From NCBI GenBank assembly GCA_020723205.1, contig DYJF01000005.1, forward strand, positions 1 through 59,023: a stretch of 59,023 nt of DNA. Reading direction: 5' to 3'. Source of the stretch: Bdellovibrio sp. (GTDB taxonomy: Bacteria > UBA10199 > 2-02-FULL-44-16 > DYJF01). Under the pieces are notes generated by a model that ran no database searches, had not been told where the DNA came from, and was given only the letters and a program-made list of their open reading frames with translations. Position 1 is the first letter of the stretch. Every line of letters begins with the position of its first letter. The translations under genes were made by a program, and so were the position numbers. Below, one piece after another: positions 18,173 to 55,099 of this stretch.

Positions 18173-18200
18173 TTCTTCGACTGTTTAAAAAATATGTTGC
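18173..18200 (-). promoter_or_regulatory. Shared motif copy 1: GCAAC-N15-TCGAAGAA
   Basis: Same spacing as copies at 23603, 28558 and 55072; upstream of the propeller gene. Confidence 0.65.
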
Positions 18201-18288
18201 TATCTTTATCTGACAATTTTAACAACGTGAATCAAATTCCGCGTCCAACTATAACCTATCGTTTTATTTAAGTATTTCTTACATCCAA

Positions 18289-18324
18289 AATAAAACCCCG
18301 GGCTGCTTTCGCAAACCCGGGGCC
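18289..18324 (-). terminator. Intrinsic terminator, copy 2 of the 36-bp direct repeat
   Basis: Identical to 16610-16645; downstream of the 1324-aa gene. Confidence 0.85.
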
Positions 18325-18347
18325 TCTGGGGGAGTCACTCTATTTTC

Positions 18348-18421
18348 GCCCCTCCTTTGTAAGGAGGGGTCAGGGGAGGTAGATATCTACCCCACCTTTC
18401 CTCCCCTTACAAAGGGGAGGA
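18348..18421. repeat. REP-like palindrome doublet (CCCCTCCTTnnnAAGGAGGGG family)
   Basis: cccctcctttgtaaggaggggtcaggggaggtaga...tctaccccacctttcctccccttacaaaggggagg; related copies at 30851 and 48368. Confidence 0.75.
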
Positions 18422-18431
18422 ATCATTTCCC

Positions 18432-21400
18432 TCACCTCTTTCTCAAGCAGCGGGATACCGCCCTGTTCACGATCAGGAGAAGTCCCATCAGGTAGATCAT
18501 GGAGGTCGGTGCCGCGTTCGTCCCTGCGACCGTCATGCAACCCTCGCGTCCGCTGGTGGCCGCGCCGATGTTGGCCGAGGGGTTGAAGAACCCGCCGTCG
18601 GTCATTTCATCGTAATCGGGTATGCCGTCGAAGTCGGAGTCGGGCAACTTGGGATCGGTCTCCATCCAACGCCCTTCCACGTCGCGATCGCGCACGCCGT
18701 TGCAGTTCAAGTCTTCGCCGATCCCGCCGATCTGGCCGTCATAGAGGCCGTCGCCGTCGGTGTCGGAGGAGAGCGCGTTCGTTTCGGAGCCGGCGTTGTA
18801 GTCGCCGTTGAGGTTCGAGTCTTCAAGACCGTCGGTGATGCAGTCGCCGTCGGTGTCGTCGTTAGTGGGATCCGTTCCGTAGCGGACCTCGAACCCGTCG
18901 TTCAAGGAGTCGCTGTCCGTATCTGCGGAGAGCGGGTTGGATTCGTGCGACGACTCATCATATATACCGTCGTGGTCGACGTCTTCCTCCCCGTCCTTGA
19001 GCCCGTCGTCATCCGTGTCCGGATTTCTGGGATCCGTGCCGAGGCGGCGCTCCTGAACGTCAGCCAGCCCGTCGCGGTCGGAATCGGCTCCGACCCCGCC
19101 CGCCCCGCAATTGGCCTCGTCGGAGTAGATCGCGTTGAGAGGACAGTAGTCATCCATATCGCCGACGCTGTCGCCGTCCGAGTCGGCCATACAGGGGTTC
19201 GAATCGTTATAAGTGACGACGCCGTTGTACTCGTCTTTGTCGGCAAGGCCGTCGTTGTCGGAGTCCGCCGACGTCGGATCGGAGATGAGGTCGATGCCGC
19301 CCGTGGAGAAGGCATCCAGTTGGGCTATGAGGTCGATGAAGTTGACCGGCACCGTATCGCCGACGATCAAGCTACCCTGAACCTCGATGCCGTCCTGCAG
19401 CGTGTCGCCGTCAGTGTCGGGATTCACCGGGTCCGTATCGAACGTCGCGATATCGGGGCAACCTTCCGCGCCGTGCGAGCCCACCGCGAGGGTGATCGTG
19501 CCGTCGTTGTTGCGGTCCTCGGCCTTGTCGCCCAAGGTGTCGTGATCCGTATCGGCATCCGACGGGTTGGTGGCGATCGGCCAGCCGAATATCTCGTCCT
19601 TATCGGCCACGCCGTCCGTGTCGGAATCCCTCGAAAGGCCATTCGACTCGGTGACGCCGATACCGGCCACGTTGATGACAATGTGGTCGTACTGGCCGTT
19701 CATGTCCTTGTCTTCCACGCAGTCGCGGACAGAGTCGCCGTCGCGATCGAGGAAACAGGAGATTATCTTCTGCGTTTGATAGACGAGCACCGGATCGCAG
19801 CTGTATGCCGTGCGGCCTTCCACGAACTTATCGGATGCGCCGTAGGTCACGGGGCAGACGTCGCTGTCGATCTCGCCCCTCCAGCCGTCCTTCGCGCCGT
19901 CGCCGTCGGTGTCGTCGCTCGCGGCGTTCAGCTTGGTCGTCGTGTCGATGCTGCACGTGCTGTTCGGCGCCTCGACGCAGTTCGGGATACCGTCATGGTC
20001 CAAGTCACCGAAGCAGATCGTGTTGATCTCTTCCCATGACCTGTACTGCGGTCTTCCGTCGGTGCCCATTATGAGGTGCCCTTCGGCATCGGTCTTATAG
20101 TATGCAAGGATGTATTCGCCTTCCTTCTTGAGCGAGTGAGGCGCACGCTCTCCCAGCTCTTCGAAGTCAACGTAGTCGGGATTGACGCCGTAGAGAAGGA
20201 TCGCAGGGCTGCAGGGCAGCGCCGCGCAGGTGTTCGTATCGTCGGCAACCGTCGGGCAGTGGTCCGGATCCGCTACAGTGGCGCATCCGGTCGTTCCGCC
20301 GACAGGGTCAACGGAGCCGTCGCCGTCGCAGAATGCGTCGCCGTCCGTATTGACGTTGAGCATATCCGTTTCGAGGTTATCGGTGTCGTATCTGCCGTTG
20401 AAGTTGGCAGGCGACGTCAGCGCGCCGTGGCGGCAGCGCAGTATCTCAAGGTAAGCGCCTTCCCTCGTGGTGTCGCTGTCGGGCAGGACGTCTCCCCACG
20501 CCTGGGGCTCTTCGATTATCTCGCCGGAGGAATTGCGCTTCACATACCAGTAGCCGTAGCTGATGCCCACGTCGCTTACGCCGAGCGTGCACGTCATCAC
20601 GGTCCGCACTCCGCTCGAATCTCTGGTCGTTATCGGATGCTCGTCCTCAAGACCGCGTCCGAACGTATAGAGCGAGCCCTGTGAAACGCCGCCGCCCAAG
20701 GACCTCAAGAGATCGTCATAGTAGAGGTTTCTGTCTTCCTGATAGTCCTTTCGGCCGTCGTTGTCGGAGTCCTTATCGAGCGGGTTGGGATAGTTGTCGT
20801 TATCCTTGTCGGCCTCCGCTCTGTTCACAACCGTCGCGTCGTCGCAAGGCAGGACCGCGTACACGCCGGGGGAAGTTTCCTTCTTCCAGCTGCCGGACGC
20901 GTCCTTACACATCACTTCCTTGCCGCCACTCATCACTGTGCCGTCGGGTATACCGTCGCGATCGCTGTCGGGATGCTGCCAGCACGTCTCATTGGGATCG
21001 CATACGCAGTTTAAGTTCACGTCCTCGTCGTCGTCGAAGAGTCCGTCGTAATCGCTGTCGAAGCCCGGGGCGGGTGCCCTGCGACCGTCGAAGCTGTACA
21101 GACCGTTGTTCGTCTGGCAGGCCGAAACACTCTGGAAGCCGTTCGCCATGCCGCCGTCACCCGGGCCGGACCCGCCTCCTGGGCCTACCGAGCCCAAGTT
21201 TCTGTCCACGCACCATCCTTCAGTGCCGCGAACGCTTGCGGGATCGACCTGCGCGATGCGCAAATACCTCGGCTGTCCCATCCTTCCGCCGGCCCCTTCG
21301 GGCACGAGGGCGACCTCTTCCAGCGCGCCCTTCTTGAAGTAGGCGGAGATGTAGCCCGCGAGTGACGCGCGCGTTCCGAGACCCACGTTCCTCACGTCGT

Positions 21401-22391
21401 TCCACGCGCCGATGTATCCGTAGAATCCGTCGCGGCCGTAGATCTGGATGCGGGTCGCAACGTTGGATGCCGTCTTTTCGCAAAGATCCGAGCCGTCGTC
21501 CTCGATGACCCAGCCGCGCACCCATATGTAGTTGTCGGTGCTCAATCCCGTGGGGTCAGGAAGTTCGATCATCTGCTTCATTACTATCTTCACCTTGGAC
21601 GCGTCGTTCTTGAAATATTTGCTCACCGAAGGCAGAGAGATGGAGAACTTGTTGCCGGAGGTCGGCACAAAGAGACCGTGGTCGTCCGTCGCTCCAACAG
21701 GCGCGTCCATGGGCTCAAGGAACGCGTTCGAGAGTGAATCGGCGGAGATGCCCTGAAACACAATGCCGTAGCCGGAGACACCCCTCACCTCTGAATCCGC
21801 GGATATCTTGCTGCCGGTGGATTCCGCTCCGAAGACAAAACCGTCGGAGCCGCCGGAGGTGATATGGACGTTCTTCATCTCGACATTGGCGTCGTTCATA
21901 CAGATCGCCGCCTTGCCGGACGGAACGTTCGTGATCTCTATGTTCTCGAGCTTCACGTAGGGCGCGTTGATGGTGATGAGGCATTCCTCGTCGCCGCCTT
22001 CGAAGTTGTAGGCGTCGATCCTGACGATGCCGCCTGTCGCTTCCGAGTCACCGATTATGGTGAAGACCTGCGACATGCCGCCGCCCCAGTTGATGACCAT
22101 CGGCTTCCTTATGGCGATGGTATCTCCGTCGGGCTTCAGGATTATCGTCTTCAGGCATGCCCCTTCGCTGTGTCCGCCGCCCAAGTTGGCATGGAAGATC
22201 GCGCGCTTCAATGAAAGCGCCGTCGGATCGGAGGTGGTCATCTGCCAGAGATGGCTTGTGACCGTGCACTCCTCGCGCGACATGTTGCCGCTGTCATAGG
22301 GCAGATCGGCGAAGAGGACTTTGGGCACGGCCAGCACTACGATCAGCGCCGCCATTCCCATCATCACGTTAATTATCCTTTTCGAACTCAT
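18432..22391 (-). CDS. Large surface protein: beta-helix-like N-terminus, many thrombospondin-3-like Asp-rich repeats, C-terminal Cys-TM-basic sorting signal
   Basis: Signal peptide; repeated DxDxDGxxDxxEDxNxNG..ETxP; ends EGCMTVAG...MIYLMGLLLIVNRAVSRCLRKR; start likely ATG 22391. Confidence 0.85.
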   Translation of the reverse strand: MSSKRIINVMMGMAALIVVLAVPKVLFADLPYDSGNMSREECTVTSHLWQMTTSDPTALSLKRAIFHANLGGGHSEGACLKTIILKPDGDTIAIRKPMVINWGGGMSQVFTIIGDSEATGGIVRIDAYNFEGGDEECLITINAPYVKLENIEITNVPSGKAAICMNDANVEMKNVHITSGGSDGFVFGAESTGSKISADSEVRGVSGYGIVFQGISADSLSNAFLEPMDAPVGATDDHGLFVPTSGNKFSISLPSVSKYFKNDASKVKIVMKQMIELPDPTGLSTDNYIWVRGWVIEDDGSDLCEKTASNVATRIQIYGRDGFYGYIGAWNDVRNVGLGTRASLAGYISAYFKKGALEEVALVPEGAGGRMGQPRYLRIAQVDPASVRGTEGWCVDRNLGSVGPGGGSGPGDGGMANGFQSVSACQTNNGLYSFDGRRAPAPGFDSDYDGLFDDDEDVNLNCVCDPNETCWQHPDSDRDGIPDGTVMSGGKEVMCKDASGSWKKETSPGVYAVLPCDDATVVNRAEADKDNDNYPNPLDKDSDNDGRKDYQEDRNLYYDDLLRSLGGGVSQGSLYTFGRGLEDEHPITTRDSSGVRTVMTCTLGVSDVGISYGYWYVKRNSSGEIIEEPQAWGDVLPDSDTTREGAYLEILRCRHGALTSPANFNGRYDTDNLETDMLNVNTDGDAFCDGDGSVDPVGGTTGCATVADPDHCPTVADDTNTCAALPCSPAILLYGVNPDYVDFEELGERAPHSLKKEGEYILAYYKTDAEGHLIMGTDGRPQYRSWEEINTICFGDLDHDGIPNCVEAPNSTCSIDTTTKLNAASDDTDGDGAKDGWRGEIDSDVCPVTYGASDKFVEGRTAYSCDPVLVYQTQKIISCFLDRDGDSVRDCVEDKDMNGQYDHIVINVAGIGVTESNGLSRDSDTDGVADKDEIFGWPIATNPSDADTDHDTLGDKAEDRNNDGTITLAVGSHGAEGCPDIATFDTDPVNPDTDGDTLQDGIEVQGSLIVGDTVPVNFIDLIAQLDAFSTGGIDLISDPTSADSDNDGLADKDEYNGVVTYNDSNPCMADSDGDSVGDMDDYCPLNAIYSDEANCGAGGVGADSDRDGLADVQERRLGTDPRNPDTDDDGLKDGEEDVDHDGIYDESSHESNPLSADTDSDSLNDGFEVRYGTDPTNDDTDGDCITDGLEDSNLNGDYNAGSETNALSSDTDGDGLYDGQIGGIGEDLNCNGVRDRDVEGRWMETDPKLPDSDFDGIPDYDEMTDGGFFNPSANIGAATSGREGCMTVAGTNAAPTSMIYLMGLLLIVNRAVSRCLRKR

Positions 22392-22433
22392 TGGGTACCT
22401 CCCCAAAAATTACCCCCCAGGGTAATCGTTATC

Positions 22434-23519
22434 TTACAGTCCAAACAACATGCCGAAACCAAGGTTGAGAACGTTGGGCGAGAACGCGATGTCCTGCCTC
22501 GTCTGATTGTCTATCGACGTGCGCTCGTAGTAACCGATGCTCGTGATGTCGCGCATATACTCGAGGTCGAGGTGCAGCCCGACCTTCTCGGAGACCTGGA
22601 AACCCACACGCAGGCCGGCTACGAACTGCATGAGCCCGTGACCGAAATCCATGATGGGGCCGGACATCGGCGTGATGATACCGGAGTCGCCGCCTACGCC
22701 CCAGCGATAGCCGCCGCCGAAGCCCAAATACGGCATGAGGGATACCTTCTTCTCCGCCGAGACAACTATATCGACGCCGAGCAGGGCGTGGACCGTGAAG
22801 TCAATGAGGTCCGCGTTCCTCGGTTCGGTCGTTCCCTCGACGTTGGTCATCTCCGCCATTCTGGAATAGATCAGGTTGGCCATGAGGCCTATCACGAAGC
22901 TGTCGCCGCGGCTGTCGATGCCGAAACCATATTGCCAGCCGCCCGACAATCCGCCCTGGAAGGACATGCAGCTGTGGGCCGCGTTGATGTCGGGATCTTC
23001 GCCGGAATATTCGGAGGGCCAGTCGCCGCCTTCCACGCACGTATTATCGCCGAAGCTCAAGAAGTTCAATTTGAGCATAAGCGGAAAATGATGGCCTGCT
23101 GTTGAAAATTCCGGGGCTTCTTCCTCTTCCGTGCCTTCGGCTGGCGCTGCCGCCGTGGCCGGAGCTGCGGCAGGGGCCGCTGCGGGCGCTGCCGCCGGAG
23201 CGGATGTTCCCGGTGCCGGTGGTTCGTTACCCGCGATGACCGCCGTGGCTACCGCCTCTGATTCCGCAGCGCTGTATCCAAGCGCGCCCCAGTGATTCAC
23301 GTCGGACATAAGAGTCTGCAACCCTTGCGGCCAAGTGGAATAGGCCGGCAAAGCCGGGGCCGGTTCCGGCACGACGCAGATTCCGTCGGTCACCGTCGGA
23401 CAAACCGTCTGACAGAGATCTTCCGACTGATTGCTCGGACAATAATCCATTCCGATGCCCGCGTTTAACAATTGCCCTGCCGGAGTGTTGTTGCTGACTA
23501 TCTGACCGCCTGAAAACAT
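22434..23519 (-). CDS. Cys-rich N-domain, Ala/Pro linker and C-terminal outer-membrane-type beta-barrel; no classical signal peptide
   Basis: APAAAPAAAP linker; amphipathic strands (LMPYLGFGGGY, FVAGLRVGFQV, VLNLGFGMLF); AGGAGG RBS. Confidence 0.7.
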   Translation of the reverse strand: MFSGGQIVSNNTPAGQLLNAGIGMDYCPSNQSEDLCQTVCPTVTDGICVVPEPAPALPAYSTWPQGLQTLMSDVNHWGALGYSAAESEAVATAVIAGNEPPAPGTSAPAAAPAAAPAAAPATAAAPAEGTEEEEAPEFSTAGHHFPLMLKLNFLSFGDNTCVEGGDWPSEYSGEDPDINAAHSCMSFQGGLSGGWQYGFGIDSRGDSFVIGLMANLIYSRMAEMTNVEGTTEPRNADLIDFTVHALLGVDIVVSAEKKVSLMPYLGFGGGYRWGVGGDSGIITPMSGPIMDFGHGLMQFVAGLRVGFQVSEKVGLHLDLEYMRDITSIGYYERTSIDNQTRQDIAFSPNVLNLGFGMLFGL

Positions 23520-23602
23520 AATTACCTCCTAAAAATTTTTCCCCCGAAGCGTTTTTACTCCCCTAAAACATTACTAAACAAGGATTCTTTGCCTCCATAC
23601 CT

Positions 23603-23630
23603 ATTATCGGCGGCCTTTAAAAAAAGTTGC
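23603..23630 (-). promoter_or_regulatory. Shared motif copy 2: GCAAC-N15-CCGATAAT
   Basis: Upstream of the 361-aa/1324-aa unit. Confidence 0.75.
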
Positions 23631-23640: not shown

Positions 23641-23674
23641 AAGACCTGAGACCTGAGACCTGAGACCGTAGACC
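23641..23674. repeat. 7-bp tandem array (TGAGACC)n
   Basis: aagacc tgagacc tgagacc tgagacc gtagacc. Confidence 0.8.
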
Positions 23675-23852: not shown

Positions 23853-24824
23853 TTAGAAGTTCATGAGTCTGAAGCCCATGTCCAGTGAAAAAAGCAGAGA
23901 ATGTTGTGGAAGCGGCGTGTCAGTGACCGTGGCGGAGTATGCCAAGCCGAGTCCCATGGTGAACCCTTCGATCGGCCATATCATGAGCTTGAGCCCGGAA
24001 CCCAACCCGATCTGGACCTCTGCACCCATGTTATCCGTCCAGTTACCAGGAGATACTTGAACCTCTTCATCCGCCCAGAATGTTCCAATATTGAAGTCGG
24101 CAAAGAGCCTCACTCCGAACGTCGCCGAAATGACGAAATAATAGCCCGCGTCTGCGAATCCCATGGCGCCGTAGACCGTGCCCGCTTCCCTCCCTGTTTC
24201 TCCCAGATTCACACCTTGAGATGTCGTGGGCATAAAGATGACGCGGCCTCCGAAAAGTCCGTAAAAACCGTTCGCCGCCTGCCCTCCCAGCGCGAGATCG
24301 ACGGTCCACGGCTGCTCGAAGGTGTCATAGGATAACATCCCTATCTTCGCCGCAAACTCGAGCCAGAGGCCGGCAGGCGTGTTGAACAGGTCCTCGTCTA
24401 TCGCTATCTCGGGCCTGCACGCCTCCGGGTCCCGGGGGGGCGTGTATTCGTGGAGCGTCATTATGCGCTCGTAGGCGTCCCGCACTTCGTCGGCGCAATA
24501 TCCGAAGCGATATACGAAGGAAAAATCCTGCGTCTCGGGGTCAGTGCTCGCGAGAATGGAGCGAAGCTCCTCTCCAAGCGCATCGAATGAGCCGGGAAGA
24601 CGCGACATCCTCACCTCCGGCGGAGATGAGGGATCGCATACGGGGTCCTCCAAATGCTTGCAGGGGCAGCCGCAATACTCCGATACTGCGCCGCCAAGGG
24701 CGATGGCCATCACCTCGCACTCATCCCTCACTTCGCGCTCGCCGCCCTCCGGCACAGGGAAGTTCGGCCCGCAGGTCATGCCTACGAGCACTCTGATCGC
24801 GGGATTGCTGTAATCAATCGGCAT
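23853..24824 (-). CDS. Cys-rich N-domain plus C-terminal outer-membrane-type beta-barrel; no classical signal peptide
   Basis: Eight Cys in the N-terminal half; amphipathic strands ending LLFSLDMGFRLMNF. Confidence 0.7.
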   Translation of the reverse strand: MPIDYSNPAIRVLVGMTCGPNFPVPEGGEREVRDECEVMAIALGGAVSEYCGCPCKHLEDPVCDPSSPPEVRMSRLPGSFDALGEELRSILASTDPETQDFSFVYRFGYCADEVRDAYERIMTLHEYTPPRDPEACRPEIAIDEDLFNTPAGLWLEFAAKIGMLSYDTFEQPWTVDLALGGQAANGFYGLFGGRVIFMPTTSQGVNLGETGREAGTVYGAMGFADAGYYFVISATFGVRLFADFNIGTFWADEEVQVSPGNWTDNMGAEVQIGLGSGLKLMIWPIEGFTMGLGLAYSATVTDTPLPQHSLLFSLDMGFRLMNF

Positions 24825-24833
24825 TCGTGTCCC

Positions 24834-26273
24834 TTATTTTTCCTCGACGACAGTGACGGCCACGCGGTTGTCGTCTATGAGCGCGAAGTTCAGTCGTATA
24901 TGATAATAATGCACGAGGCACGGCAGGGAGACTTTTTTCATTATCTCCTGCGCCATCCATTGCGCGATGTTGCCGTACGTTACGCGCTCCTCCTGTGTAG
25001 GAGCCGCGTACGTGATGCGCATGTCGGTGACGCGCCTCTCGTCGTTCGCGAACAGCTCGAAATCGGCCTCGAAGGATGCGGGGAAATCGAATTCCCCGGC
25101 TCTAAGCTCCGCTATGAGCCGCGTATAGACGTCTCCCGCGGCGGTCATGATCGCCGCTTCAAGCTCGTCCCTGTCGCGCGGCGGGGATGAATCCTCATAT
25201 TCGGCCGTCGCCTCGAACACGTCCACGATCTCGGAGGGGTCAGGGGAGCCGCAGAGCTCGGCGGCATCCGGCACGGGTATTATGTCGCGCATCTCGGGGA
25301 TAAGAAGTCCAAGACCGCGCAGTGTCTGCGGCGCCACGTTCTGCGCCGCTTCCTGCGCGCCTCTCACGGCGTCGCGGGCGCGCATCTGTGCGTCGGCCAC
25401 GAAGGAGAGCGAATCCTCGATAGAGGAGACGCCGGAAGCGCCCTGCACCTCGCAGATGCGCATGACCTGCCCCAAGCCCATCGCCAGCCAGTTCGCGTAG
25501 GCGTTCATCGCGAGCCACGCGTTCCTTATGGCCTTTATCGCCTCCTGCTCCGCCGCTTCGTCTGGGGTAACGAAGATGACGATACCGTCGGCCGGAGCGG
25601 TTATCTCTTCCGTCATGATCTCGATCGCCGGGTTCAAGTCCTCCCGCGGTTCGCCCGCCGCGGCGCTCTCGGCCACGCGCTGATCGAGGTAATTCGAAAG
25701 GGTCGCTATCTGAACTTCGGTGAGAGGGAGATCGCCCAGCATGCGCTTCAAGTCGCGCGCGCTTCGCTCGCTTATCTGCGTGTTCTCAAATTCCTGCACG
25801 AGTATGCCCAAGAGCCGGCGCTGCAACCCTTCGGTCAGGGCCGCGGCCACTATCAAAAGTTCCTGCACTTCGGGATTCGCCGGCATTTCGGAGAGCCGCC
25901 TCGTCAGGCGGTCAAGCGTTCTTAGGCCCTCCACCGCCTTGTTGGCAAAACGGCTGCGCCTGCTCCTCGATATCTCCTCCTCTTCGGGATTTGGCATCGC
26001 ATCCAGATCGGCCTGAACCTCGTTTATCTCCCCCCTGTATCTCGCGATGCGCGGCCCCAGACGCTCCATATCGTTCTGCGCCCGCTGCATGCGCTCTATG
26101 GCCTCCTGCGCGCGGGCAAGCGCGGCTTCACGCTGGGCCTGAAGCAGGCGTTCGGTCGCCTCCTGCGCACGTGCCAGGGCCGCTTCGCGCTGCGCGTCGG
26201 ACGCGTCCTGCCGCTCTTCAGTTGAAGGAATCTCCGGCGGCGACTGCTTCGCCAGTCTTACTTCGAGTCCCAT
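24834..26273 (-). CDS. Helical protein with 19-aa AQREAALARAQEA repeats and a possible TonB/TolA-C-like C-terminal domain
   Basis: Repeats shared with the 748-aa neighbour; C-terminal helix-strand-strand-helix-strand pattern. Confidence 0.65.
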   Translation of the reverse strand: MGLEVRLAKQSPPEIPSTEERQDASDAQREAALARAQEATERLLQAQREAALARAQEAIERMQRAQNDMERLGPRIARYRGEINEVQADLDAMPNPEEEEISRSRRSRFANKAVEGLRTLDRLTRRLSEMPANPEVQELLIVAAALTEGLQRRLLGILVQEFENTQISERSARDLKRMLGDLPLTEVQIATLSNYLDQRVAESAAAGEPREDLNPAIEIMTEEITAPADGIVIFVTPDEAAEQEAIKAIRNAWLAMNAYANWLAMGLGQVMRICEVQGASGVSSIEDSLSFVADAQMRARDAVRGAQEAAQNVAPQTLRGLGLLIPEMRDIIPVPDAAELCGSPDPSEIVDVFEATAEYEDSSPPRDRDELEAAIMTAAGDVYTRLIAELRAGEFDFPASFEADFELFANDERRVTDMRITYAAPTQEERVTYGNIAQWMAQEIMKKVSLPCLVHYYHIRLNFALIDDNRVAVTVVEEK

Positions 26274-26297: not shown

Positions 26298-28529
26298 TCA
26301 TTCGCTGACGGTCTGAAAGCTCATCCCGCCGCCGCCCGCTCTTATTACGATGGGGATCTCTCTTATGGTGCGGCCGTCTCTTCCGTTCTCCGCCCTGATA
26401 TACCTGCAAAATGCCGAAGCGATCTTATAGTACCAGTTGCGCATCCCCGGGTCTTCCATCAGGTCCTCGCCGCTGGTGCGCACTCCGTCCCGAACCCTGT
26501 CCGTGGCGGAGATCGTGACCTCCGAGACGTAGCCCTCATCATCAAGCTCCACGGTCACCTGCGCGATGAGCACCATCGTCGGCGGAAAGCTCCACTGATT
26601 GAGAACGGATGTGATCTTCTCGGTGAACGCGTCCCTCGTCGCGTCTATCTGCTGCGATATCTCGCCGTTGCAATCGCAACTCACCGTCATGCGCCTTCCG
26701 TGGACCACCGGCTGGCCGATGTGGGTTGCTTGAGAGGTGGAAAGCTGTTGCACGTCCGGTATGCGCGCCTCTTCGCCGGTCGGTATCGTAGGCAAGGTGA
26801 GCCCGCTGCGTTGCTGCACGTTCAAGGCGGCCATTGCCGCCGCGGCCGCGGCTATCTTGGCCTCGGCGTTCTGTCTCGCGGCTGTCGCCTGTTCGATCGC
26901 CTCCACGGCATTTTCCCTAAGATCGCGGAACGCGCGCCTTCCGATGCACTGACCGCTCGCGGCGGCCGCCACTTCCTGTGCGGCTTCGCGCGCCTTCAGG
27001 GCCTTCGCAAGGAACTGCTCGACAGCGGATTGCGCTTCGTTGACTGCCTCTTGCGCCGCGCCCTGCACGCGTCTTAGCTCCGCGGCCGCCTGAAGCTCCG
27101 CCGAGCGCGTATTCAGGATCCTCTCAATCTCGCCCAAGACGTAGATGAGCGAACCCCTGCGGCTCTCGTCGAGCTTCGACTCGTTCACCTTATCGCGCAG
27201 ACTTGCTATGTCGCGCAGGCGGTCGCGGATATCTCCCTCGTCGGATATCGTCTCCGCCTCCTGCTGCATCGCGACCACTTTCTCCATGACGAGATTGAAT
27301 ATGCGGTTGCACAGCAAATCCTGTATGGACGTCGCCTGCGCTACGAGGCCGCCCGCCGCTGCGTCCGCGCCGTTCTCTTCAATGAATTGCGTGACCCTCT
27401 CCAGATTGGATATCGCCCTGTTCAGATTCATACCCTCTATATCTTCGGAGGAATTCTGGCCTTCTATCCTTGTAAATGCGCGCACCTGCGCCCTTGAGGG
27501 CTCCGGCGGCGAAACAGTCGCCGACGCTTCAACGGGTGGAGGAGCGGTCTCAAAGCCGGGCGGGACGCGGATCGGCTGTTCGATAAAGGGAACCGGCGGC
27601 GGATTTACGGGTGGTGTTACCGGGGGCGTCGGAGGCGTCGTTTCGCAAGTGGACATCCCCTCCTCCAGCGCTATCCTCGCAACTTCCAGCTGCGTCTGCC
27701 GCTGCGATAATATAACTCGGAGCGCCTGTTTCTGCGTATCGCTGAGTTCGGACCCGTCAATGGCGGTGTTCAGTTCGACAAGCGTTCTCAAGTGTCTGTC
27801 GATCGCCCTTATCGTCCCCGCGGCTCGGGCGACTTCGCAGTACTCCTGATGGTACGGGACCGCCTCTATCTCCCCCTGGAACAACGAGACGAGCCGGGTT
27901 TCAAGCCGCGACTTCATGGCCTCTACTGCGATCCTCATCTCGTGGGTTTCAGCGGCCTCCGGCACATCTCTCAAGAATGAATTGACGTCTCTGAGGCGAC
28001 GGGTCGCGGTCTGCCTGTCCATAGCGGCGACACGTTCCTCCGTGTTGCGGCCCATGAGTTCGTCGTACTTTTCCGTCCAGCGCCTAAGCTGCCTTGCGGA
28101 TATCTCGACCGCGGGTGCCGGCGGCGCGGCCGGCGTTTGCGCGTCCTGCATTCTGCGTATCGCTTCCTGCGCCCTTGCTATCGCCGCTTCCGCCTGCGCC
28201 TCCTGCATTCTGCGTATCGCTTCCTGCGCGCGGGCGAGCGCCGCTTCGCGCTGGGCTTCCTGCATGCGGCGCACGGCTTCCTGCGCTCGGGCTACCGGGT
28301 CCTGTCCCCCGCCCTGCGACTGCTTCGCGGCATCCGCGGCGGATTTCGCGAAAAGAAGTGCCACAGACTGCTCCGGCTGGGTTTCACAGACCGGAAGGTC
28401 GAACAGCGACGGTGCGACGGAGTATGAATCCTGCGAGTGCGTGCCGGATGTCTCGAAAGACGGAGAACCGCACAACCCCTCGTCCTCTGGAGTGGCACCG
28501 AACCCGCCCACGACCGGATTAACAGCCAT
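26298..28529 (-). CDS. Helical protein with 19-aa repeats, Pro-rich linker and a possible TonB/TolA-C-like C-terminal domain
   Basis: EAQREAALARAQEAIRRMQ repeats; TPPTPPVTPPVNPPP; WSFPP...VTVELDDEGYVSEVTI; start likely ATG 28529. Confidence 0.7.
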   Translation of the reverse strand: MAVNPVVGGFGATPEDEGLCGSPSFETSGTHSQDSYSVAPSLFDLPVCETQPEQSVALLFAKSAADAAKQSQGGGQDPVARAQEAVRRMQEAQREAALARAQEAIRRMQEAQAEAAIARAQEAIRRMQDAQTPAAPPAPAVEISARQLRRWTEKYDELMGRNTEERVAAMDRQTATRRLRDVNSFLRDVPEAAETHEMRIAVEAMKSRLETRLVSLFQGEIEAVPYHQEYCEVARAAGTIRAIDRHLRTLVELNTAIDGSELSDTQKQALRVILSQRQTQLEVARIALEEGMSTCETTPPTPPVTPPVNPPPVPFIEQPIRVPPGFETAPPPVEASATVSPPEPSRAQVRAFTRIEGQNSSEDIEGMNLNRAISNLERVTQFIEENGADAAAGGLVAQATSIQDLLCNRIFNLVMEKVVAMQQEAETISDEGDIRDRLRDIASLRDKVNESKLDESRRGSLIYVLGEIERILNTRSAELQAAAELRRVQGAAQEAVNEAQSAVEQFLAKALKAREAAQEVAAAASGQCIGRRAFRDLRENAVEAIEQATAARQNAEAKIAAAAAAMAALNVQQRSGLTLPTIPTGEEARIPDVQQLSTSQATHIGQPVVHGRRMTVSCDCNGEISQQIDATRDAFTEKITSVLNQWSFPPTMVLIAQVTVELDDEGYVSEVTISATDRVRDGVRTSGEDLMEDPGMRNWYYKIASAFCRYIRAENGRDGRTIREIPIVIRAGGGGMSFQTVSE

Positions 28530-28557: not shown

Positions 28558-28585
28558 ATTATCGGCTATCTCTCAAAAAAGTTGC
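28558..28585 (-). promoter_or_regulatory. Shared motif copy 3: GCAAC-N15-CCGATAAT
   Basis: Upstream of the 748/479/323-aa operon. Confidence 0.75.
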
Positions 28586-28592: not shown

Positions 28593-28632
28593 CGGTGTCC
28601 GGCACAAAACGGGCATTTTGTGTCGGACACCG
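28593..28632. terminator. Long hairpin ending the acyl-CoA operon
   Basis: cggtgtccggcacaaaa...ttttgtgtcggacaccg inverted repeat. Confidence 0.6.
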
Positions 28633-49336: not shown

Positions 49337-50677
49337 CTATAAGATATATCTGCTAAGGTCCCTGTTCTTCACAATATCTGAAAGCGCGCTCACGACATAA
49401 TGACGGTCTATGATCACTTTCTCCCTGCCCTTTTCAGGCGCCGTGAAGGATATCTCCTCTAAAAGCTTTTCCATCACAGTGTGCAGCCGTCTGGCGCCGA
49501 TGTCCTCCATCTGGGAGTTCACCTCCGCCGCGATCTGGCAGATCTCCTTCAACGCCTCGTCGCCGAAGGACATGTCTATCCCCTCGGTCCTCATCATCGC
49601 GACGTACTGTTTCGTGAGAGAGTTGTCCGGCTCCGTCAATATTCTGTAGAATTCATCTTTGCCCAAAGAATCAAGCTCTACGCGAATGGGAAAGCGGCCC
49701 TGAAGCTCCGGGATAAGATCTGAGGGCTTCGTGGCATGAAAAGCGCCGGCGGCTATAAACAGCACGTGGTCGGTCCTGACCATTCCGTGCTTGGTGGCGA
49801 CCGTCGAACCTTCGATAATGGGGAGGATGTCGCGCTGCACGCCTTCGCGGGAAACGTCGGGGCCGTAGCGGCCTTCGCCTGATCTGGATGCGATCTTGTC
49901 TATCTCGTCTAAAAAAACAATGCCGTTCTGCTCGACCTTCTCTATCGCCTGTTTGATGACGGCTTCCATGTCTATGAGGCGGGAGGCCTCCTCTTGCGAG
50001 AGTATTTCCATGGCCTCTGCGACCTTGACGCGTTTTTTCTTAGGGCCCTTGGGCATGAAGCTGGAAAAAAGATCGCGAAGATTCGTTCCCATCTCCTCGA
50101 GACTCGTGGCGGCTACGACCTCTATGGAGGGCATCTGCGGTTTCGGCGGCTCGGGCATGAGCTCGACGTATTTGCCGTCCAGTTTTCCCCCTCGCAGAAG
50201 TTTTCGCAGTTCTTCCCTCGCCTCTTCGGGCGACTTCGCCTCTTCAAACTCCTTGGACATCTTGGGGAGCAATATATCGAGCACCTTCTCCTCGGCCATC
50301 TCCTGGGCCCTGACCTGCACCCGTTTCGTCTCATCCTCACGCACCATCTTGACAGCGATGTCGGTAAGTTCGCGGATTATCGATTCGACGTCCTTTCCGA
50401 CATAGCCCACCTCGGTGAACTTGGAGGCCTCTACCTTGATGAACGGGGCCTGCGCGAGCCGCGCAAGACGCCTCGCGATCTCCGTTTTCCCGACTCCCGT
50501 GGGCCCTATCATGATGATATTCTTGGGGACTATCTCGTCCCTGAGCGGGGGTGACACCTGCTGGCGGCGCCACCTGTTGCGAAGCGCGATAGCGACCGCC
50601 TTCTTCGCCTTGTTCTGTCCGACTATGAACCGGTCCAGTTCGGACACTATCTCTCTGGGCGTAAAATTCGCGGTCAT
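49337..50677 (-). CDS. hslU: HslUV protease ATPase subunit
   Basis: [34 protein letters not shown]. Confidence 0.98.
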
Positions 50678-50679
50678 CC

Positions 50680-51207
50680 CTAGATAACCTCTGTGTTTAT
50701 TTTGTCGTTCGTGAACACGCAGATCTCCGATGCGACCTTCATCGCCTCTTCTACGATCTTTTTCGCCGGCAGGTCAGAGTGGCGCATGAGCGCCCGTGCT
50801 GAAGCCAGCGCATACGGCCCTCCGGAGCCGATGGCCGCTACGCCGTCGTCCGGCTCAAGGACATCGCCGTTACCAGAGATCGTAAAAGTGTTCTCTTTGT
50901 CCGCAACGATCATCATCGCCTCGAGGCGGCGCAGGATCCTGTCGGTGCGCCAGTCCTTTGCAAGTTCAACCGCCGCACGCGTGAGATTTCCGCGATGTTC
51001 CTCCAGCTTGCCTTCGAACTTCTCGAAGAGAGTGAACGCATCGGCGGCGGAACCGGCAAAGCCCGCTATCACCTTGCCGTCCCCCATCGTGCGCACCTTG
51101 TTGGCGGTGCTCTTCATCACAGTGTTGTTGAAGCTCACCTGCCCGTCGCCGGCTATCGCCACTTCGCCGTTCCTCCGGACACACAGTATCGTCGTTGCAT
51201 GGAACAT
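50680..51207 (-). CDS. hslV: HslUV protease peptidase subunit
   Basis: HATTIL catalytic Thr, GDGQV, KDWRTD, AIGSGG. Confidence 0.98.
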
Positions 51208-51216
51208 TTTCGCCTC

Positions 51217-52104
51217 CTATGCCTTCGGATGCGCCTTGTCGTAGACCTCCATCATTTTTTCGATGCCGACGTGCGTGTATTTCTGGGTCGTCGAAAGACT
51301 GGAGTGGCCCAAGAGCTCCTGAATTCCGCGCATATCCGCGCCGGCGTTCAGGAGATGCGTAGCAAACGTGTGACGCAATACGTGCGGGGTCGCCGCCTTT
51401 TGTATCCCGCTCTGTCTTAGGTATTTGATCATCATGCGCTCGATCGCCCGCGTTGAGAGCCGTGTGCCGTTCCTGTTCACGAAGATCGCCGTGTTCACGG
51501 CCGAATCTCCGGCGAGGGCCGGCCTTAGATCGAGATAGTTCTTGAGGGCATCACACGCCTTTTTTCCGACGGGAACCATTCTTTCCTTCCTTCCCTTTCC
51601 CAGCACCCTCACGACACCGTCATCAACGTTTAAGTCCCCCCTATTCAGGCCAACGAGCTCGCTTACGCGAAGACCGGACGCATATAACAGCTCCATGATC
51701 GCCTTGTCGCGCCTGCCCAAGGCGCCGGTCGCGTCCGGCGTTTCAAGGAGCGCGAATACCTCGTCGACCGTCAGGAATTTAGGGACCCTCTTCGGGACCT
51801 TGGGGGCAGGAACCTCTTTCGCGGGGTTATCCTTCACGGTCCCCCTCTTTACGCAGTAGTCGAAAAAGCTCCTTAGACTTGAAAGTTTTCTCGCGATCGA
51901 TGTGGGGTTCTTTTTTCCGAAGAGCGTGCCGAGATATTCGCGCACGACGGCATGATCTATCTCCGTGACCTTCATTCCCCTGCGGCGGTTCTGCATGAAA
52001 TTGCTGAACTGCGCAAGGTCAACGAGGTAGTTCTTTACGGTATGTGAGGACGCCCTTCTTTCAGTTTCAAGATAGGAAGAAAAGTCGTTGATGAGATCTT
52101 TCAT
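51217..52104 (-). CDS. xerC: Tyrosine recombinase XerC
   Basis: SGLRVSEL, GKGRKER, HVLRH, LLGH..TTQKY; position immediately upstream of hslVU. Confidence 0.9.
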   Translation of the reverse strand: MKDLINDFSSYLETERRASSHTVKNYLVDLAQFSNFMQNRRRGMKVTEIDHAVVREYLGTLFGKKNPTSIARKLSSLRSFFDYCVKRGTVKDNPAKEVPAPKVPKRVPKFLTVDEVFALLETPDATGALGRRDKAIMELLYASGLRVSELVGLNRGDLNVDDGVVRVLGKGRKERMVPVGKKACDALKNYLDLRPALAGDSAVNTAIFVNRNGTRLSTRAIERMMIKYLRQSGIQKAATPHVLRHTFATHLLNAGADMRGIQELLGHSSLSTTQKYTHVGIEKMMEVYDKAHPKA

Positions 52105-55063
52105 GTCCGCCCCCTACTGAAAAGCGGCGGAATCCTATCAAAAGGCAGACACAAAGCAATAGAATTGTAGTCGTATAATATTTATCACACCCCGTTTCTT
52201 TGACAAGCTGGCATGCGCCCCCGCCGCTTCTGTCAAAGAGCCACAGCGGAGTTGTCGCCGCAGTGTCGCCCTCACCCGGCGATTCCGAAGGGCTAGTTCC
52301 TCCACCGCCGATACCGCCGAAGGAGCCGCCGCCTTCGCCTTGAGTGCAGTCCTTCGCCTCATTGTCATAGACGTCTGGTACGGTGTTCACGTTCTGGTCC
52401 TGCCAGCCGCCCTCCTTGACGTCAGGGCAGCCGTCGTCGTCGGAATCCACGTCTATCGCATTGGGAACTCCGTCGCAGTCGATGTCCGCGATGTCTGGCG
52501 GAGGATGGCACTTCGGCCCTCCCGTGATGAGGCGCAGATCGAAATCGGGGATGCGATCGCCGTCGAAATCGCCGCGCGCCTCTACGCCGTCCTCCAAGCC
52601 GTCGCGGTCCGTGTCCAAGACAGAAGGATCTGATTCAGCGGCCTCTATCCAGCCGTTACCGTTCGCGTCCTCAACGCCGTCCATGAGGCCGTCGCTGTCG
52701 GAATCCGGATTTAGTGGATCCATCAGATGCGGATTTCTGTAATTAGTACCCGCCGCCTCAAGTCCGTGGCACGAGTTCCCGGCCTGCGACGGTTTGATCA
52801 CGCCGGCCTCAACGCCGTCGGAGAGCCCGTCCTCGTCGGAATCGCAAGCGTTGGGATAGGTCCCGAGCCGCTTCTCCTGACCGTCACTCACGCCGTCGCC
52901 GTCGGTGTCGGCCATATGGGCGTCGCTTTCATCCGGACCTAGTATGCCGTCCCCGTCCTTGTCCCCCTCCTCACCGTCAATGATGCCGTCTCCGTCGGCG
53001 TCGGAAAGCGTCGGGTCAGATTCGACCCACTCGGAGCCCGATGCGCCGTCCGTGTCCCGCTTGCCGTTGAAGTTAAAGTCCTCGTTCCCGTCACGAACGC
53101 CGTCGCTGTCGGTGTCGACCGACGTGGGGTCGGTGGTTGTCGCCGGGTCCGCGTCAAAGAGCATCGCTATGTTATCGAACGTTGCCGGGAGGGTCGCATC
53201 GTATATGAGGGCGTTCGCCATCTCCGTAATAGTGTGGTCGGTCAGTATCGCCTGGCACCGGAGCGATATCGTATAGCGCGGTTTCTGCGGCTTTCTCGCA
53301 ACGAGCGCCTTGACCTCCGCTTCAGACGCGCCGAGCTCAAGGCCGTCCGGCAGGCAATCGCCATCCGAATCGGGATTCAGGGGATCAAGTTTCGTGACAT
53401 CGGCGAACGGATAGTTCTGCGAAAGCAGGATACCGACCCTCCCCGTATGCAAGCTTTCTTCGCCGTCCAAGAGACCGTCGGCATCGGTATCGGGATCGAT
53501 AGGGTCCGTCTCCCCCGCGTCCACTCGCCCGTTATGATTCGCGTCCTCTTTCTCGTTTAATATTCCGTCCTCGTCGTCATCGCCGCCCGGAGTCGCCTGT
53601 CTGCTGCCGGTCACGGGCGACGTGTTCCCGTGTTCGGTGTCCACAAGCGCCGCGACGAACGTGATACCCGCACCCGCGTTCGTGACGCGCACGCTGAAAC
53701 GACCGCCCGAATCGACTTCACCCTGTCCCGCAAAGAACATCCCGCTGCCGCTGTCGGCATAAAGGTCGGCCCGGAGGGCGTTCATATTTATCGTGCTTAA
53801 GTTCCACGGGAACCATGTCTCGGAGGATATCATAACGTTCCCCGTGACAGTCACGTCCGCTCCAGCTCCATCGGCGGAAAGCTGGACGATCGAAGGCAGC
53901 GGGAACCTGCTGACAAAGAGCCCCCCAACCGGAGTCCCTGTGACAAGCGCCGTCTGAAGGAGATTCACGTCGAACGGTTCTTCCGCCTCTTTGCAGATCG
54001 CAACAGGCGCCATCGTGTTCACAAAAACGTCCCTGCCGGAATTGTTTGCGATGAGATTCTTGAAGAGCGGTGCTGCGTCGACCGCTTCGGCCGGGGGTTC
54101 CCACGATGTTATCTTCACTCCGTATGCGTCGATAAAAACGCCGGCGGCGCCGTGAGCGTAAGGATACGCGTCGAAAACGGCGGCGACTGCGTCGGAGGAT
54201 GAAGCGTCCTCGTTCAGTCCCGCCTTCGACCAAAGATCGCGGCACCTCCCTACAGATCTCCAAAAATATCCGCAGGGATCGCCCATCGGAACGAACGGCT
54301 CTTCGCAGTCCGGTTCGCGGGCGAAAAGCTCCGCGCACTGCTCCGCTTCCATCTTGAGCGACCAGCATGATGGGATGCGCTCCCATTCATCGGCGTCACT
54401 GCAGCTTGTCCCCGAAAGACGGCTCCCGTTGTCATGAATATGAGAATTTGAAATCACCGTCCCACGGCCGGAAACGTTCTGTGTCGCGCTTCCGCAACTC
54501 TGACCGGCGGAATCACCCCCTACGGACACCCCGTTGACGCCGTTGGAAGCTATCTCCGTATCGACTATGCGGTTATCTCTTCCCGTCACGCGAACCCCGT
54601 TCGCGCCGTTCGAGACAATCCTGCTCCTGATGACGAGATTCCTCTCGCCCGATATCCTGATGCCGTCCCCGGCCGTCCCCTCAACTGTGACGTGGTCGAG
54701 TATGATCCTCTTCCCCTTGATATCAATACCGCCTGATCCCGCCGAAAACCTCACTACCGCCGCAGGATCGGCTATAATGACGAGCGGCATCTCCGATGAG
54801 TTTTCTATCGCATGGACAGCCGCCGAGATATCGTCAGAAGACGCGAACTTGACCACATTGAAAGATGCGGTGCCGGGAAAGAACTCTCCGTAGCGGTTCC
54901 TGTATCGTACCGCGTCGGTGACGCAGCCGTTTCCGTTCGCAAGCGCAAGCGCTGCGTTCAAGCCGCCGGCTCCTCCGGTCGCCATGCATTCGGAAGCAAA
55001 GACCCTGCCGGCCGCCAAGAGGGCAAAAACGAATACAAATATGGATGGAAACGGGCGTTTCAT
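52067..55063 (-). CDS. Large surface protein: right-handed beta-helix, thrombospondin-3-like repeats, Cys-TM-basic sorting signal
   Basis: Signal peptide ending VFA; NGANGVRV/NGVNGVSV repeats; DxDxDG repeats; GGGACQL..ILLLCVCLLIGFRR; start reassigned to ATG 55063. Confidence 0.85.
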   Translation of the reverse strand: MKRPFPSIFVFVFALLAAGRVFASECMATGGAGGLNAALALANGNGCVTDAVRYRNRYGEFFPGTASFNVVKFASSDDISAAVHAIENSSEMPLVIIADPAAVVRFSAGSGGIDIKGKRIILDHVTVEGTAGDGIRISGERNLVIRSRIVSNGANGVRVTGRDNRIVDTEIASNGVNGVSVGGDSAGQSCGSATQNVSGRGTVISNSHIHDNGSRLSGTSCSDADEWERIPSCWSLKMEAEQCAELFAREPDCEEPFVPMGDPCGYFWRSVGRCRDLWSKAGLNEDASSSDAVAAVFDAYPYAHGAAGVFIDAYGVKITSWEPPAEAVDAAPLFKNLIANNSGRDVFVNTMAPVAICKEAEEPFDVNLLQTALVTGTPVGGLFVSRFPLPSIVQLSADGAGADVTVTGNVMISSETWFPWNLSTINMNALRADLYADSGSGMFFAGQGEVDSGGRFSVRVTNAGAGITFVAALVDTEHGNTSPVTGSRQATPGGDDDEDGILNEKEDANHNGRVDAGETDPIDPDTDADGLLDGEESLHTGRVGILLSQNYPFADVTKLDPLNPDSDGDCLPDGLELGASEAEVKALVARKPQKPRYTISLRCQAILTDHTITEMANALIYDATLPATFDNIAMLFDADPATTTDPTSVDTDSDGVRDGNEDFNFNGKRDTDGASGSEWVESDPTLSDADGDGIIDGEEGDKDGDGILGPDESDAHMADTDGDGVSDGQEKRLGTYPNACDSDEDGLSDGVEAGVIKPSQAGNSCHGLEAAGTNYRNPHLMDPLNPDSDSDGLMDGVEDANGNGWIEAAESDPSVLDTDRDGLEDGVEARGDFDGDRIPDFDLRLITGGPKCHPPPDIADIDCDGVPNAIDVDSDDDGCPDVKEGGWQDQNVNTVPDVYDNEAKDCTQGEGGGSFGGIGGGGTSPSESPGEGDTAATTPLWLFDRSGGGACQLVKETGCDKYYTTTILLLCVCLLIGFRRFSVGGGHERSHQRLFFLS

Positions 55064-55071
55064 CTCAAGAC

Positions 55072-55099
55072 CTTTTCGGTCATTAGGCAAAAATGTTGC
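55072..55099 (-). promoter_or_regulatory. Shared motif copy 4: GCAAC-N15-CCGAAAAG
   Basis: 8 nt upstream of ATG 55063; same spacing as the other three copies. Confidence 0.7.

Follow-up and report, generated by a model that had tools for sequence, protein, structure and literature searches.

We describe here a class of promoter-like sites found in a 59,023-nucleotide (nt) stretch of DNA from Bdellovibrio sp. (GTDB phylum UBA10199; GenBank assembly GCA_020723205.1, contig DYJF01000005.1). This whole stretch, called the window below, is contig C36 of a 1.75-Mb assembly of 85 contigs that is 83% complete. Three minus-strand sites in the window, which we name by their first positions 23630, 28585 and 55099, and possibly a fourth at 18200, are in our judgement likely to be promoters of one phylum-wide alternative-sigma regulon of about 80 promoters. 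The factor that most likely reads them is a FliA/WhiG-like sigma of 298 amino acids (aa), encoded outside the window on contig C61 (19362–20258, minus strand) and referred to below as the C61 sigma.

Promoter-like sites in the window and across the genome

The motif consists of an A-rich segment, the block GCAACTTTT, a spacer of 15–17 nt and the block tGCCGATAAt. We represented it by a two-block weight matrix built from the sites of this genome (consensus AAAAntAa-GCAACTTTT for the first block and cTG-CCGATAAT-aa for the second) and used reversed/complemented sequence as the control. Whole-genome counts of GCAAC-N(x)-CCGA[TA]A for spacers of 10 to 20 nt were 3, 2, 0, 3, 1, 31, 11, 11, 2, 1 and 1, a sharp and spacer-specific excess that is confined to 15–17 nt. 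With the matrix, the genome gave 132 matches against 22 in the control at 14 bits or more, 85 against 4 at 18 bits or more and 63 against 0 at 24 bits or more. Merging of overlaps left 82 sites, with a spacer of 15 nt in 61 of them, 16 nt in 9, 17 nt in 10 and 18 nt in 2; some 80 sites amount to roughly one per 21 kb. The −35 block is GCAAC in 78–81 of the 82 sites, and the −10 block reads tG-C-C-G-A-T/A-A-A, its C-G-A being present in 81–82. On an open reading frame (ORF) map that is crude and deliberately greedy, covering 93.7% of the genome, 58 of the 82 sites fall in the 6.3% outside ORFs (binomial p ~1e-50), and 50 of these 58 lie no more than 160 nt upstream of an ORF on the same strand. 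A genome scan, which the preliminary description of the window had proposed as a check, thus places the motif far above background and finds it oriented toward gene starts. The same scan replaces the idea that the motif links just two loci 27 kb apart with that of a regulon of about 80 sites spread over the genome.

In the window itself the simpler pattern GCAAC-N15-YCGA has six matches, every one on the minus strand; shuffled sequences averaged 1.55, and six matches were reached in 2 of 100 shuffles. Four of the six (18177–18200, 23607–23630, 28562–28585 and 55076–55099) are the motifs singled out in the preliminary description, and reading the sequence confirmed both their positions and their letters. 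They also lie just before transcription units, as had been claimed: all four are intergenic and 8–83 nt 5′ of a minus-strand start codon, the gap from the end of the −10 octamer to the start codon being 47 nt at 18200, 83 nt at 23630, 13–31 nt at 28585 and 8 nt at 55099. The remaining two matches (1466–1489 and 15032–15055) are within ORFs and without a T tract; the matrix built from the genome gives them 5.4 and −1.4 bits.

The site at 23603–23630 (minus strand; GCAAC, 15 nt, CCGATAAT) has, with 39.6 bits, the top score in the genome, and the ATG 83 nt downstream of it, at 23519, is preceded by a Shine-Dalgarno-like GGAGG. The site at 28558–28585 (minus strand; GCAAC, 15 nt, CCGATAAT) scores 34.6 bits, stands 5′ of a 742-aa ORF and is directly preceded by a hairpin with a 17-bp stem (28593–28632), and the site at 55072–55099 (minus strand; GCAAC, 15 nt, CCGAAAAG) scores 27.6 bits. 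The site at 18173–18200 (minus strand; GCAAC, 15 nt, TCGAAGAA) is a weak candidate at 12.0 bits. In its favour, it is intergenic, follows a terminator-like hairpin with a T run that ends the upstream unit (~18283–18323, judged by eye), and is followed after 47 nt by an ORF starting MLSGG, an N-terminal signature that is enriched behind the motif. At 12 bits or more there are 191 matches in the genome and 62 in the control, and because the false-positive level is high at this score, site 18200 is not established on its own and is treated here as a candidate member only. A chance-level sigma-70-like match, TTGTCA-16-TATTTT, overlaps it. No further site of at least 12 bits was found in a promoter-like position in the window.

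In the Pseudomonas aeruginosa fliC promoter, TCTAAAG lies at −36 to −30 and GCCGATAA at −15 to −8 (PMC12784957). Placed in the fliC register, GCAAC occupies −34 to −30, the same place as TAAAG. The sites described here thus resemble sigma-28 promoters in their extended −10 element, GCCGATAA, which in that class is read by a conserved arginine, and in an equal distance between the −35 and −10 elements. They are unlike them in the −35 element, which is GCAAC(TTT) here and TAAAG(TTT) in canonical sites, so that the TAAA(G) that goes with a canonical region 4.2 helix is missing. The E. coli sigma-28 −35 consensus is TAAAGTTT, and its counterpart here is GCAACTTT. The earlier view of the motifs is supported: they look like promoters for an alternative sigma factor and combine a −10 of sigma-28 type with a −35 that is not canonical.

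Some of the sites have further sequence features beside them. Just 5′ of the strongest promoter, three tandem GGTCTCA heptads and a GGTCTT occupy 23641–23667 on the minus strand, and words like GTCTCA(T/G)GTCT also precede sites on contigs C51 and C82; the heptads may be an activator site or an UP-like element. Between site 55099 and the gene upstream of it lies a long imperfect inverted repeat (GTGTAGGAGTGTAGGAG ... CTACACTCCTACAC; ~55107–55192, minus strand). The 998-aa gene behind this site has its ATG (55063) 8 nt past the −10 octamer and no Shine-Dalgarno sequence, a layout shared by its same-genus orthologue (L191); given sigma-28 geometry, an ATG this close to the −10 octamer suggests that the mRNA would be almost leaderless.

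The C61 sigma and the type III secretion cluster

Two general sigma models gave the same inventory of five sigma-70-family genes in this genome: RpoD (contig C75), an RpoH-like factor (C47), two giant paralogues (C31) and the 298-aa protein on C61. General sigma-70 models found no sigma of the extracytoplasmic function (ECF) type in this genome. The C61 sigma is the only one of the five with FliA_WhiG as its best family; its best relatives of solved structure are WhiG and FliA, and Pfam recognizes Sigma70_r2 (45.8 bits) and Sigma70_r4 (51.4 bits) in it. In P. aeruginosa sigma-28, R97 reads the GC of the extended −10 element, an aromatic residue stacks on the flipped −11 base and Q228 reads −36/−35 (PMC12784957). 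When the two proteins are aligned, R97 corresponds to R147 of the C61 sigma, Y76 to F126, S224 to S263 and Q228 to R267. The aromatic residue for the −11 base is therefore kept as F126, and R147 is invariant, together with W144 and P146, in all 26 phylum orthologues compared. The recognition helix is L-S-K-S-W-T-S-R-L-H, with L260–W264 and S266–H269 also invariant in 26 of 26. Region 4.2 of these proteins thus has the helix SKSW[T/V]SRLH in place of the canonical (S/T)ESRVSQ(I/L)H, from which it differs at four of nine positions, the Q228 equivalent included. RpoD, the RpoH-like factor and the two giant sigmas have recognition helices of the RERIRQ/KERVRQ type.

The preliminary description had called for a FliA/WhiG-like sigma with an altered region 4, and such a protein is present: the part from region 2 to region 3 appears to be of FliA/WhiG type, with the extended −10 arginine, and the 4.2 helix is changed. 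The part that reads the −10 element is kept and the part that reads the −35 element is altered, in agreement with a promoter that joins a sigma-28 −10 to a novel −35. On these sequence grounds the C61 sigma is most likely the dedicated reader of the motif. The same description had inferred a hybrid specificity with an ECF contribution, which did not hold. Region 4 of the C61 sigma alone matches WhiG and FliA at 35.5–32.7 bits, against 15.5 bits (E 0.18) for the ECF sigma SigW. Nor does the protein have the two-domain layout with Sigma70_r4_2 that marks ECF (group 4) factors, as Sigma70_r4 scores 51.4 bits against 31.5 for r4_2. SRLH-type helices typify ECF sigmas, but we dropped the idea of an ECF hybrid because region 4 is of FliA/WhiG type at the domain level.

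The sigma gene lies inside a cluster for type III secretion. In minus-strand order this comprises a 175-aa ORF, an LcrH/SycD-like TPR chaperone, an SctJ-like lipoprotein, a motif site, a 140-aa ORF, a 119-aa ORF and the sigma gene, followed by a 166-aa ORF, a 330-aa ORF, the export ATPase SctN, a FliJ/SctO-like protein, a 258-aa ORF, SctQ-like ORFs (identified by eye only), SctR, SctS, SctT and a 377-aa ORF. Contig C60 carries a partial SctV. SctR scores 229.3 bits, over the yscR cut-off of 208.6, and on the FliP model it is under FliP's own cut-off; the SctJ-like lipoprotein scores 131.7 bits as SctJ, beneath the cut-off of 161.95, against 37.5 bits as FliF. With its core export genes and a ring protein of SctJ type instead of FliF, the system classes as non-flagellar type III. 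No SctC secretin above the cut-off was found in this genome, two secretin-family genes on C56 scoring 127 and 117 bits against a cut-off of 238. Flagellin_N and Flg_bb_rod gave no match in this 83%-complete genome, and hence there is no flagellin or rod/hook family match. The needle family gave no match in this genome either, though the control genomes were silent too. The 166-aa ORF (C61:18858–19358, minus strand) overlaps the end of the sigma gene, and its C-terminus (…ELLxIQAHVFHxAQMTELTVK…NTQ[VI]Q) is strongly conserved. In the Atlas clusters closest to it (score 0.98), 21–51% of members carry the needle family, which we take as a lead only; the secretion system may have a needle- or rod-like protein.

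The cluster has motif sites of its own. A site of 33.2 bits with a 17-nt spacer stands 72 nt 5′ of the operon of the 140-aa ORF, the 119-aa ORF, the sigma and the 166-aa ORF, and a site of 18.8 bits, also with a 17-nt spacer, stands 5′ of the operon of the 175-aa ORF, the chaperone and SctJ. Among relatives, a same-strand site of at least 14 bits lies 600–1500 nt upstream of the sigma start in 25 of the 36 loci with enough flanking sequence, and 14 of 22 have a second one at a distance of 2.5–3.8 kb. A 17-nt spacer was found in 25 of 25 and in 22 of 23 of these sites. This predicted, conserved self-promoter is the strongest tie of the motif to the C61 sigma, and its conservation before the sigma operon implies positive feedback. 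Most promoters of the regulon have a 15-nt, T-rich spacer, and the two sigma/secretion-cluster promoters (C61:21240 and 23305) have a 17-nt, GC-rich one (GCAACTTyGGG...) that is kept in nearly all relatives (loci L007–L049). The difference may reflect two promoter classes, for example early and late.

Throughout the phylum, GCAAC-N15-17-CCGATAA is over-represented in 93 of 93 genomes, with 4–85 copies in each against 0–4 in the backwards control. The sigma is single-copy in 91 of the 93, including all 63 of high quality, and 89 have an SctJ-like gene, in most cases some 2 kb away from the sigma gene. Public relatives are uncultured metagenome-assembled genomes (MAGs) labelled Deltaproteobacteria, Pseudomonadota or Myxococcota bacterium, with one isolate label, 'UBA10199-1'. 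Flagellin occurs in just 12 of the 93 genomes. All five flagellated relatives tested have an additional, canonical FliA (208–240 bits on the FliA_WhiG model) on their flagellar contigs, and none of 13 flagellin upstream regions from flagellated relatives carries the motif at 10 bits or more. These observations rule out that the C61-type sigma is simply the flagellar FliA, and the regulon here is not the late-flagellar (flagellin) regulon of sigma-28. Since flagellated relatives have a separate FliA and flagellin genes free of the motif, the secretion-linked sigma is best seen as a distinct paralogue with its own promoter class. The flagellin genes themselves show another pattern, AAG[T/C/G]T-N12-14-CCGT, 95–127 nt before the ATG in 8 of 13 (L090–L095, L099 and L100) against 1 of 26 control scans, a pattern picked after looking. 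It suggests that the flagellar FliA of the phylum also has a shifted −10, with a sigma-28-like −35 and CCGT where CCGA is expected.

Possible other readers and other readings of the motif

Several observations weigh against the assignment of the motif to the C61 sigma, or against parts of it. On the FliA_WhiG model (NCBIfam TIGR02479) the protein scores 130.8 bits and does not reach the cut-off of 189.6, although this is still its best family. Group 3 sigmas comprise regions 2, 3 and 4 and lack region 1.1; Sigma70_r3, seen in two canonical FliAs of relatives, was not found in the C61 sigma at E ≤ 0.01. The assembly is 83% complete, so a further sigma could be unassembled. A test of co-occurrence of sigma and motif over the 93 genomes was uninformative: both are near-universal in the phylum, and co-occurrence therefore cannot tell the sigmas apart. 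In 11 of 36 relatives no site of at least 14 bits was found at the expected place upstream of the sigma. Four Myxococcaceae genomes, whose sigma shares the recognition helix, show no excess of the full motif (0–1 vs 0–1); the sigma there is also without the W-x-P-R segment. Closer to the window, the same-genus homologue of the 361-aa protein described below has no motif of at least 13 bits within 1.5 kb upstream. The regulatory partner is the subject of two further points. A small, fast-evolving and partly disordered ORF, of 119 aa here, is always found just upstream of the sigma gene, and neither it nor its positional counterparts gave a Pfam or NCBIfam match to FlgM. Co-folding of the sigma with the 119-aa ORF scored 0.59 (best of three controls 0.00) and was graded as weak support. 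Of 80 solved complexes 58 attain the mark, as do 2 of 110 mismatched pairs; a pass at 0.60 or below was seen for just 7 of those 80 complexes plus both passing mismatches (partner pLDDT, the predicted local distance difference test, of at least 42; at least 33% of contacts common to runs). On gene order and this weak co-folding score, the 119-aa ORF is a candidate anti-sigma factor. Membership of the small ORFs near the sigma in FlgM or YscI was rejected for want of a significant Pfam or NCBIfam match, the best being T3SS_basalb_I at E 0.11 for a 174-aa ORF of Myxococcus.

A real promoter class might also be read by another factor, either a giant C31 paralogue or a sigma missing from the incomplete assembly, which we regard as rather improbable. 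Two strong sites (31.6 and 34.6 bits) do lie 3–4 kb upstream of the giant sigma genes, but a minus-strand gene stands between these genes and the nearby sites, no site of at least 12 bits directly precedes them, and their RpoD-like recognition helix, LSRERIRQ, is a poor fit to a GCAAC −35. Two spacer classes, 15 nt against 16–17 nt and GC-rich, could likewise mean two readers. Against this, the general sigma-70 model detected no ECF-type sigma as a further candidate, and the −10 element is the FliA signature, with the C61 sigma as the only FliA-like factor that has the extended −10 arginine.

That the box is not a promoter, and is instead a transcription factor site or one end of a mobile element or small repeat located between genes, seems to us very unlikely. 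Extra repeats beside some sites, such as the heptads at 23641–23667, and divergent motif pairs 80–110 bp apart in relatives would suit this explanation. The box is, however, bipartite, with strict 15–17-nt spacing around a variable spacer; it is strand-oriented to a downstream start at a short, promoter-like distance, and it matches the sigma-28 −10 element letter for letter. A repeat element in particular does not fit, because the copies share no conserved sequence beyond the two blocks. Scarcely credible is the idea that the motif is the general housekeeping promoter of the lineage, for which one could cite that it is frequent and phylum-wide. It is found before the genes for SMC, YchF and a DEAD-box helicase, and one site lies inside dnaG, upstream of rpoD. 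The statement in the preliminary description that no full match precedes a housekeeping gene accordingly holds inside the window and fails genome-wide. But no motif was found within 250 nt upstream of any of 33 tRNA genes (top score 4.9 bits), about 82 sites are too few for roughly 1500+ genes, most downstream genes are orphans, and RpoD has fully canonical −10 and −35 reading regions. A dedicated promoter class read by the C61 sigma thus continues to be the explanation that we favour.

Downstream genes, related systems and a possible circuit

Of the 78 first genes behind the motif that were scanned, 4 are in the window and the other 74 elsewhere in the genome. Pfam found 69 families among them, each in one or two members. 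Among the top 25 families listed, TSP_3, SLT, PilZ and helicase domains have two members each, and LysM, GGDEF, squalene-hopene cyclase, SMC, YchF, DEAD, acyl-CoA dehydrogenase, DnaG and others have one. These low and scattered counts, together with direct tests of the window genes, indicate that most of the downstream genes are orphans. There is no enrichment of Sec-type signals, which occur in 10 of 75 first genes and 229 of 1505 in the background, by a crude heuristic with uncertain start codons. With no such excess, and with cytoplasmic housekeeping functions among the first genes, the regulon is not the general surface-protein regulon that had been proposed. The N-termini show two recurrent signatures. 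Starts of the form M-[LFIWVM]-[SA]-[GA]-G were found in 14 ORFs preceded by a Shine-Dalgarno sequence (for example on C33, C41, C70 and C71, and C61:9212–10345), with four together on C41 and one at the end of the secretion cluster; 5 of these 14 have the motif no more than 200 nt upstream, against 64 of 3597 ORFs overall. The second, Y-x-E/D-x-C-G, occurs in five other motif-driven proteins (C9, C31 and C81).

The preliminary description had placed each of the four window sites before an accessory envelope unit; of the four, transcription units (TU) 2 and 4 could be recognized as such. TU2, behind site 23630, begins with a gene for a 361-aa protein with the start MFSGGQ (22434–23519, minus strand), which combines a helical, Cys-rich N-domain with a Pro/Ala linker and a beta-barrel resembling OmpW/OmpA. 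Its N-domain contains four invariant cysteines, and the protein has no visible Sec signal peptide and no Pfam match. In the AlphaFold2 model (mean pLDDT 65.3) the C-terminal half is all-beta, and its top Foldseek matches are OmpW, OmpA, OprG and NspA (E ~1e-5; template modelling score on the target, 0.59–0.63); its neighbours in the Atlas bear the name OMP beta-barrel (0.95, 147 shared features). A word-index homologue search with this protein returned nothing at E ≤ 0.001, an exhaustive search among 1.84 billion representatives gave only three relatives, two of which start MFSGG, and of 22 related genomes the same-genus one alone gave a match (the homologue at locus L186). The second gene of TU2, 27 nt from the first, encodes a 1324-aa protein (18432–22406, minus strand) with a signal-like N-terminus, a C-terminal hydrophobic segment with a basic tail and a weak Beta_helix match (17.5 bits, under the cut-off). 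By its sequence features it is probably a surface-anchored beta-helix protein.

TU4 consists of the gene for a 998-aa protein (52067–55063, minus strand). The protein starts with a Sec-type signal peptide and has a hydrophobic anchor at its C-terminus, together with a beta-helix and TSP3 repeats; Beta_helix (25.5 bits) and TSP3_bac (24.1 bits) are each slightly beneath the cut-off. Of 22 related genomes, 21 have this protein. Its three full-length orthologues (L191, L192 and L193, with 60%, 48% and 38% identity) each have a same-strand motif directly upstream (25.1, 29.8 and 16.9 bits). A motif also stands upstream of three of four shorter homologues of the C-terminal domain and is about 0.8 kb away in the fourth. 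In relatives (L194–L197), motifs on opposite strands 80–110 bp apart form divergent promoter pairs beside homologues of the 998-aa protein. At the C-terminus of both beta-helix proteins, of 1324 and 998 aa, a hydrophobic segment precedes a basic tail, an arrangement that looks like a sorting or anchoring signal.

TU3 starts with the gene for the 742-aa orphan (26298–28526, minus strand), which has no Pfam match and a match in 1 of 22 related genomes (same genus, 26% identity); the gene for this homologue (L188) has a 32.9-bit motif upstream. Genes for 479-aa and 323-aa proteins, also without a Pfam match, follow tightly packed (23853–26273, minus strand; gaps of 24 and 9 nt), and the 479-aa protein is a distant paralogue of the 742-aa protein (34% identity over 156 residues). 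TU1 (16665–18125, minus strand), behind the candidate site 18200, is made up of a 67-aa ORF starting MLSGG (17915–18125, minus strand) and a 416-aa ORF in one frame with it, split by a TAG (17922–17924) and two sense codons. None of 22 related genomes has a match to the 416-aa product. The N-terminal part of TU1 resembles the starts of two longer motif-driven proteins on C41, where related motif-driven proteins with a similar start are single proteins of 509–680 aa. The split in TU1 could be a nonsense mutation, read-through or a true split.

Within the sigma-28 class (FliA/SigD/WhiG), WhiG and FliA are the best matches of the C61 sigma in sequence and structure databases and share the conserved extended −10 arginine; unlike them, the C61 sigma is below the curated cut-off and its genome is without a flagellin or rod/hook family match. 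HrpL is an ECF (group 4) sigma that recognizes the box GGAACC...CCAC and controls the hrp-box regulon of type III systems of plant pathogens. There, and by proposal here, a dedicated sigma encoded in the secretion cluster acts through one bipartite box both on the operons of the apparatus and on dozens of fast-evolving cargo genes at scattered positions; the C61 sigma differs in being of FliA/WhiG type in regions 2 and 4, and the downstream products here are putative cargo. In the FliA–FlgM and the Bordetella BtrS–BtrA systems, a sigma is held by an anti-sigma that is exported by a type III machine. Common to these and to the C61 locus are a sigma gene in an export-apparatus cluster and a small, fast-evolving ORF immediately upstream; the differences are that no FlgM family match was found here and that binding and export are predicted only.

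The next relatives of the sigma are in Myxococcaceae, with 36–42% identity and the helix SKSWASRLH, and lack its W-x-P-R segment. In a Myxococcus MAG the genes are ordered LcrH-like chaperone, small ORF, sigma, ~170-aa ORF, SctJ, SctL, a neighbourhood like that on C61. The type III-like cluster of Myxococcus xanthus is described as a 'needleless' T3SS* used in contact-dependent predation, and neither 'sigma' nor 'FliA' occurs in the source (PMC12075869). In the present genome, for comparison, no SctC secretin was found above the cut-off. The term 'needleless' may not apply here, because the nearest clusters of the 166-aa ORF partly carry the needle family. With the sigma gene inside a type III cluster related to that of Myxococcaceae, the suggested link to an attachment or attack phase of the lifestyle is plausible. 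We found no description of such a promoter, or of a sigma in such clusters, in the open-access literature; what is new is the assignment to a secretion-cluster FliA paralogue, the altered helix, the conserved self-promoter, the separate flagellar FliA and the link to the myxobacterial cluster.

We propose that the C61 sigma would bind the motif sites, with transcription starting about 8 nt after CCGATAA. It would activate itself and the secretion apparatus in a positive feedback, and would turn on a fast-evolving, variable set of cargo and envelope genes. By analogy with FliA–FlgM, its activity may be coupled to the secretion machine, with the 119-aa ORF as the candidate anti-sigma. A bolder version of this circuit, which we think unlikely as a whole, would be that a FliA paralogue was retained, and its −35 preference changed, as an export machine derived from the flagellum turned into a contact weapon. 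The sigma would then act as a checkpoint, held by a small exported anti-sigma until the machine is engaged and thereafter amplifying itself, the apparatus and the whole cargo set; the ~80 motif-marked genes would be the substrates and the M-hydrophobic-S-G-G start an export tag.

If that were true, the ~80 motif-marked genes would be a direct catalogue of substrates, including outer-membrane-type barrels without a Sec signal. Next to nothing is known of what the 'needleless' type III-like systems deliver in predatory myxobacteria and their uncultured relatives. The C61 sigma appears to be a natural case of retuned sigma-28 specificity, in which reading of the −10 element is kept and that of the −35 element is changed, and the presence of a canonical FliA beside this sigma in one phylum could show how paralogous sigma regulons stay apart. 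An easily scanned promoter signature marks about 80 genes per genome across an uncultured phylum and comes with a candidate dedicated sigma; signature and sigma together turn the question of what the machine delivers, and when, into a testable list.

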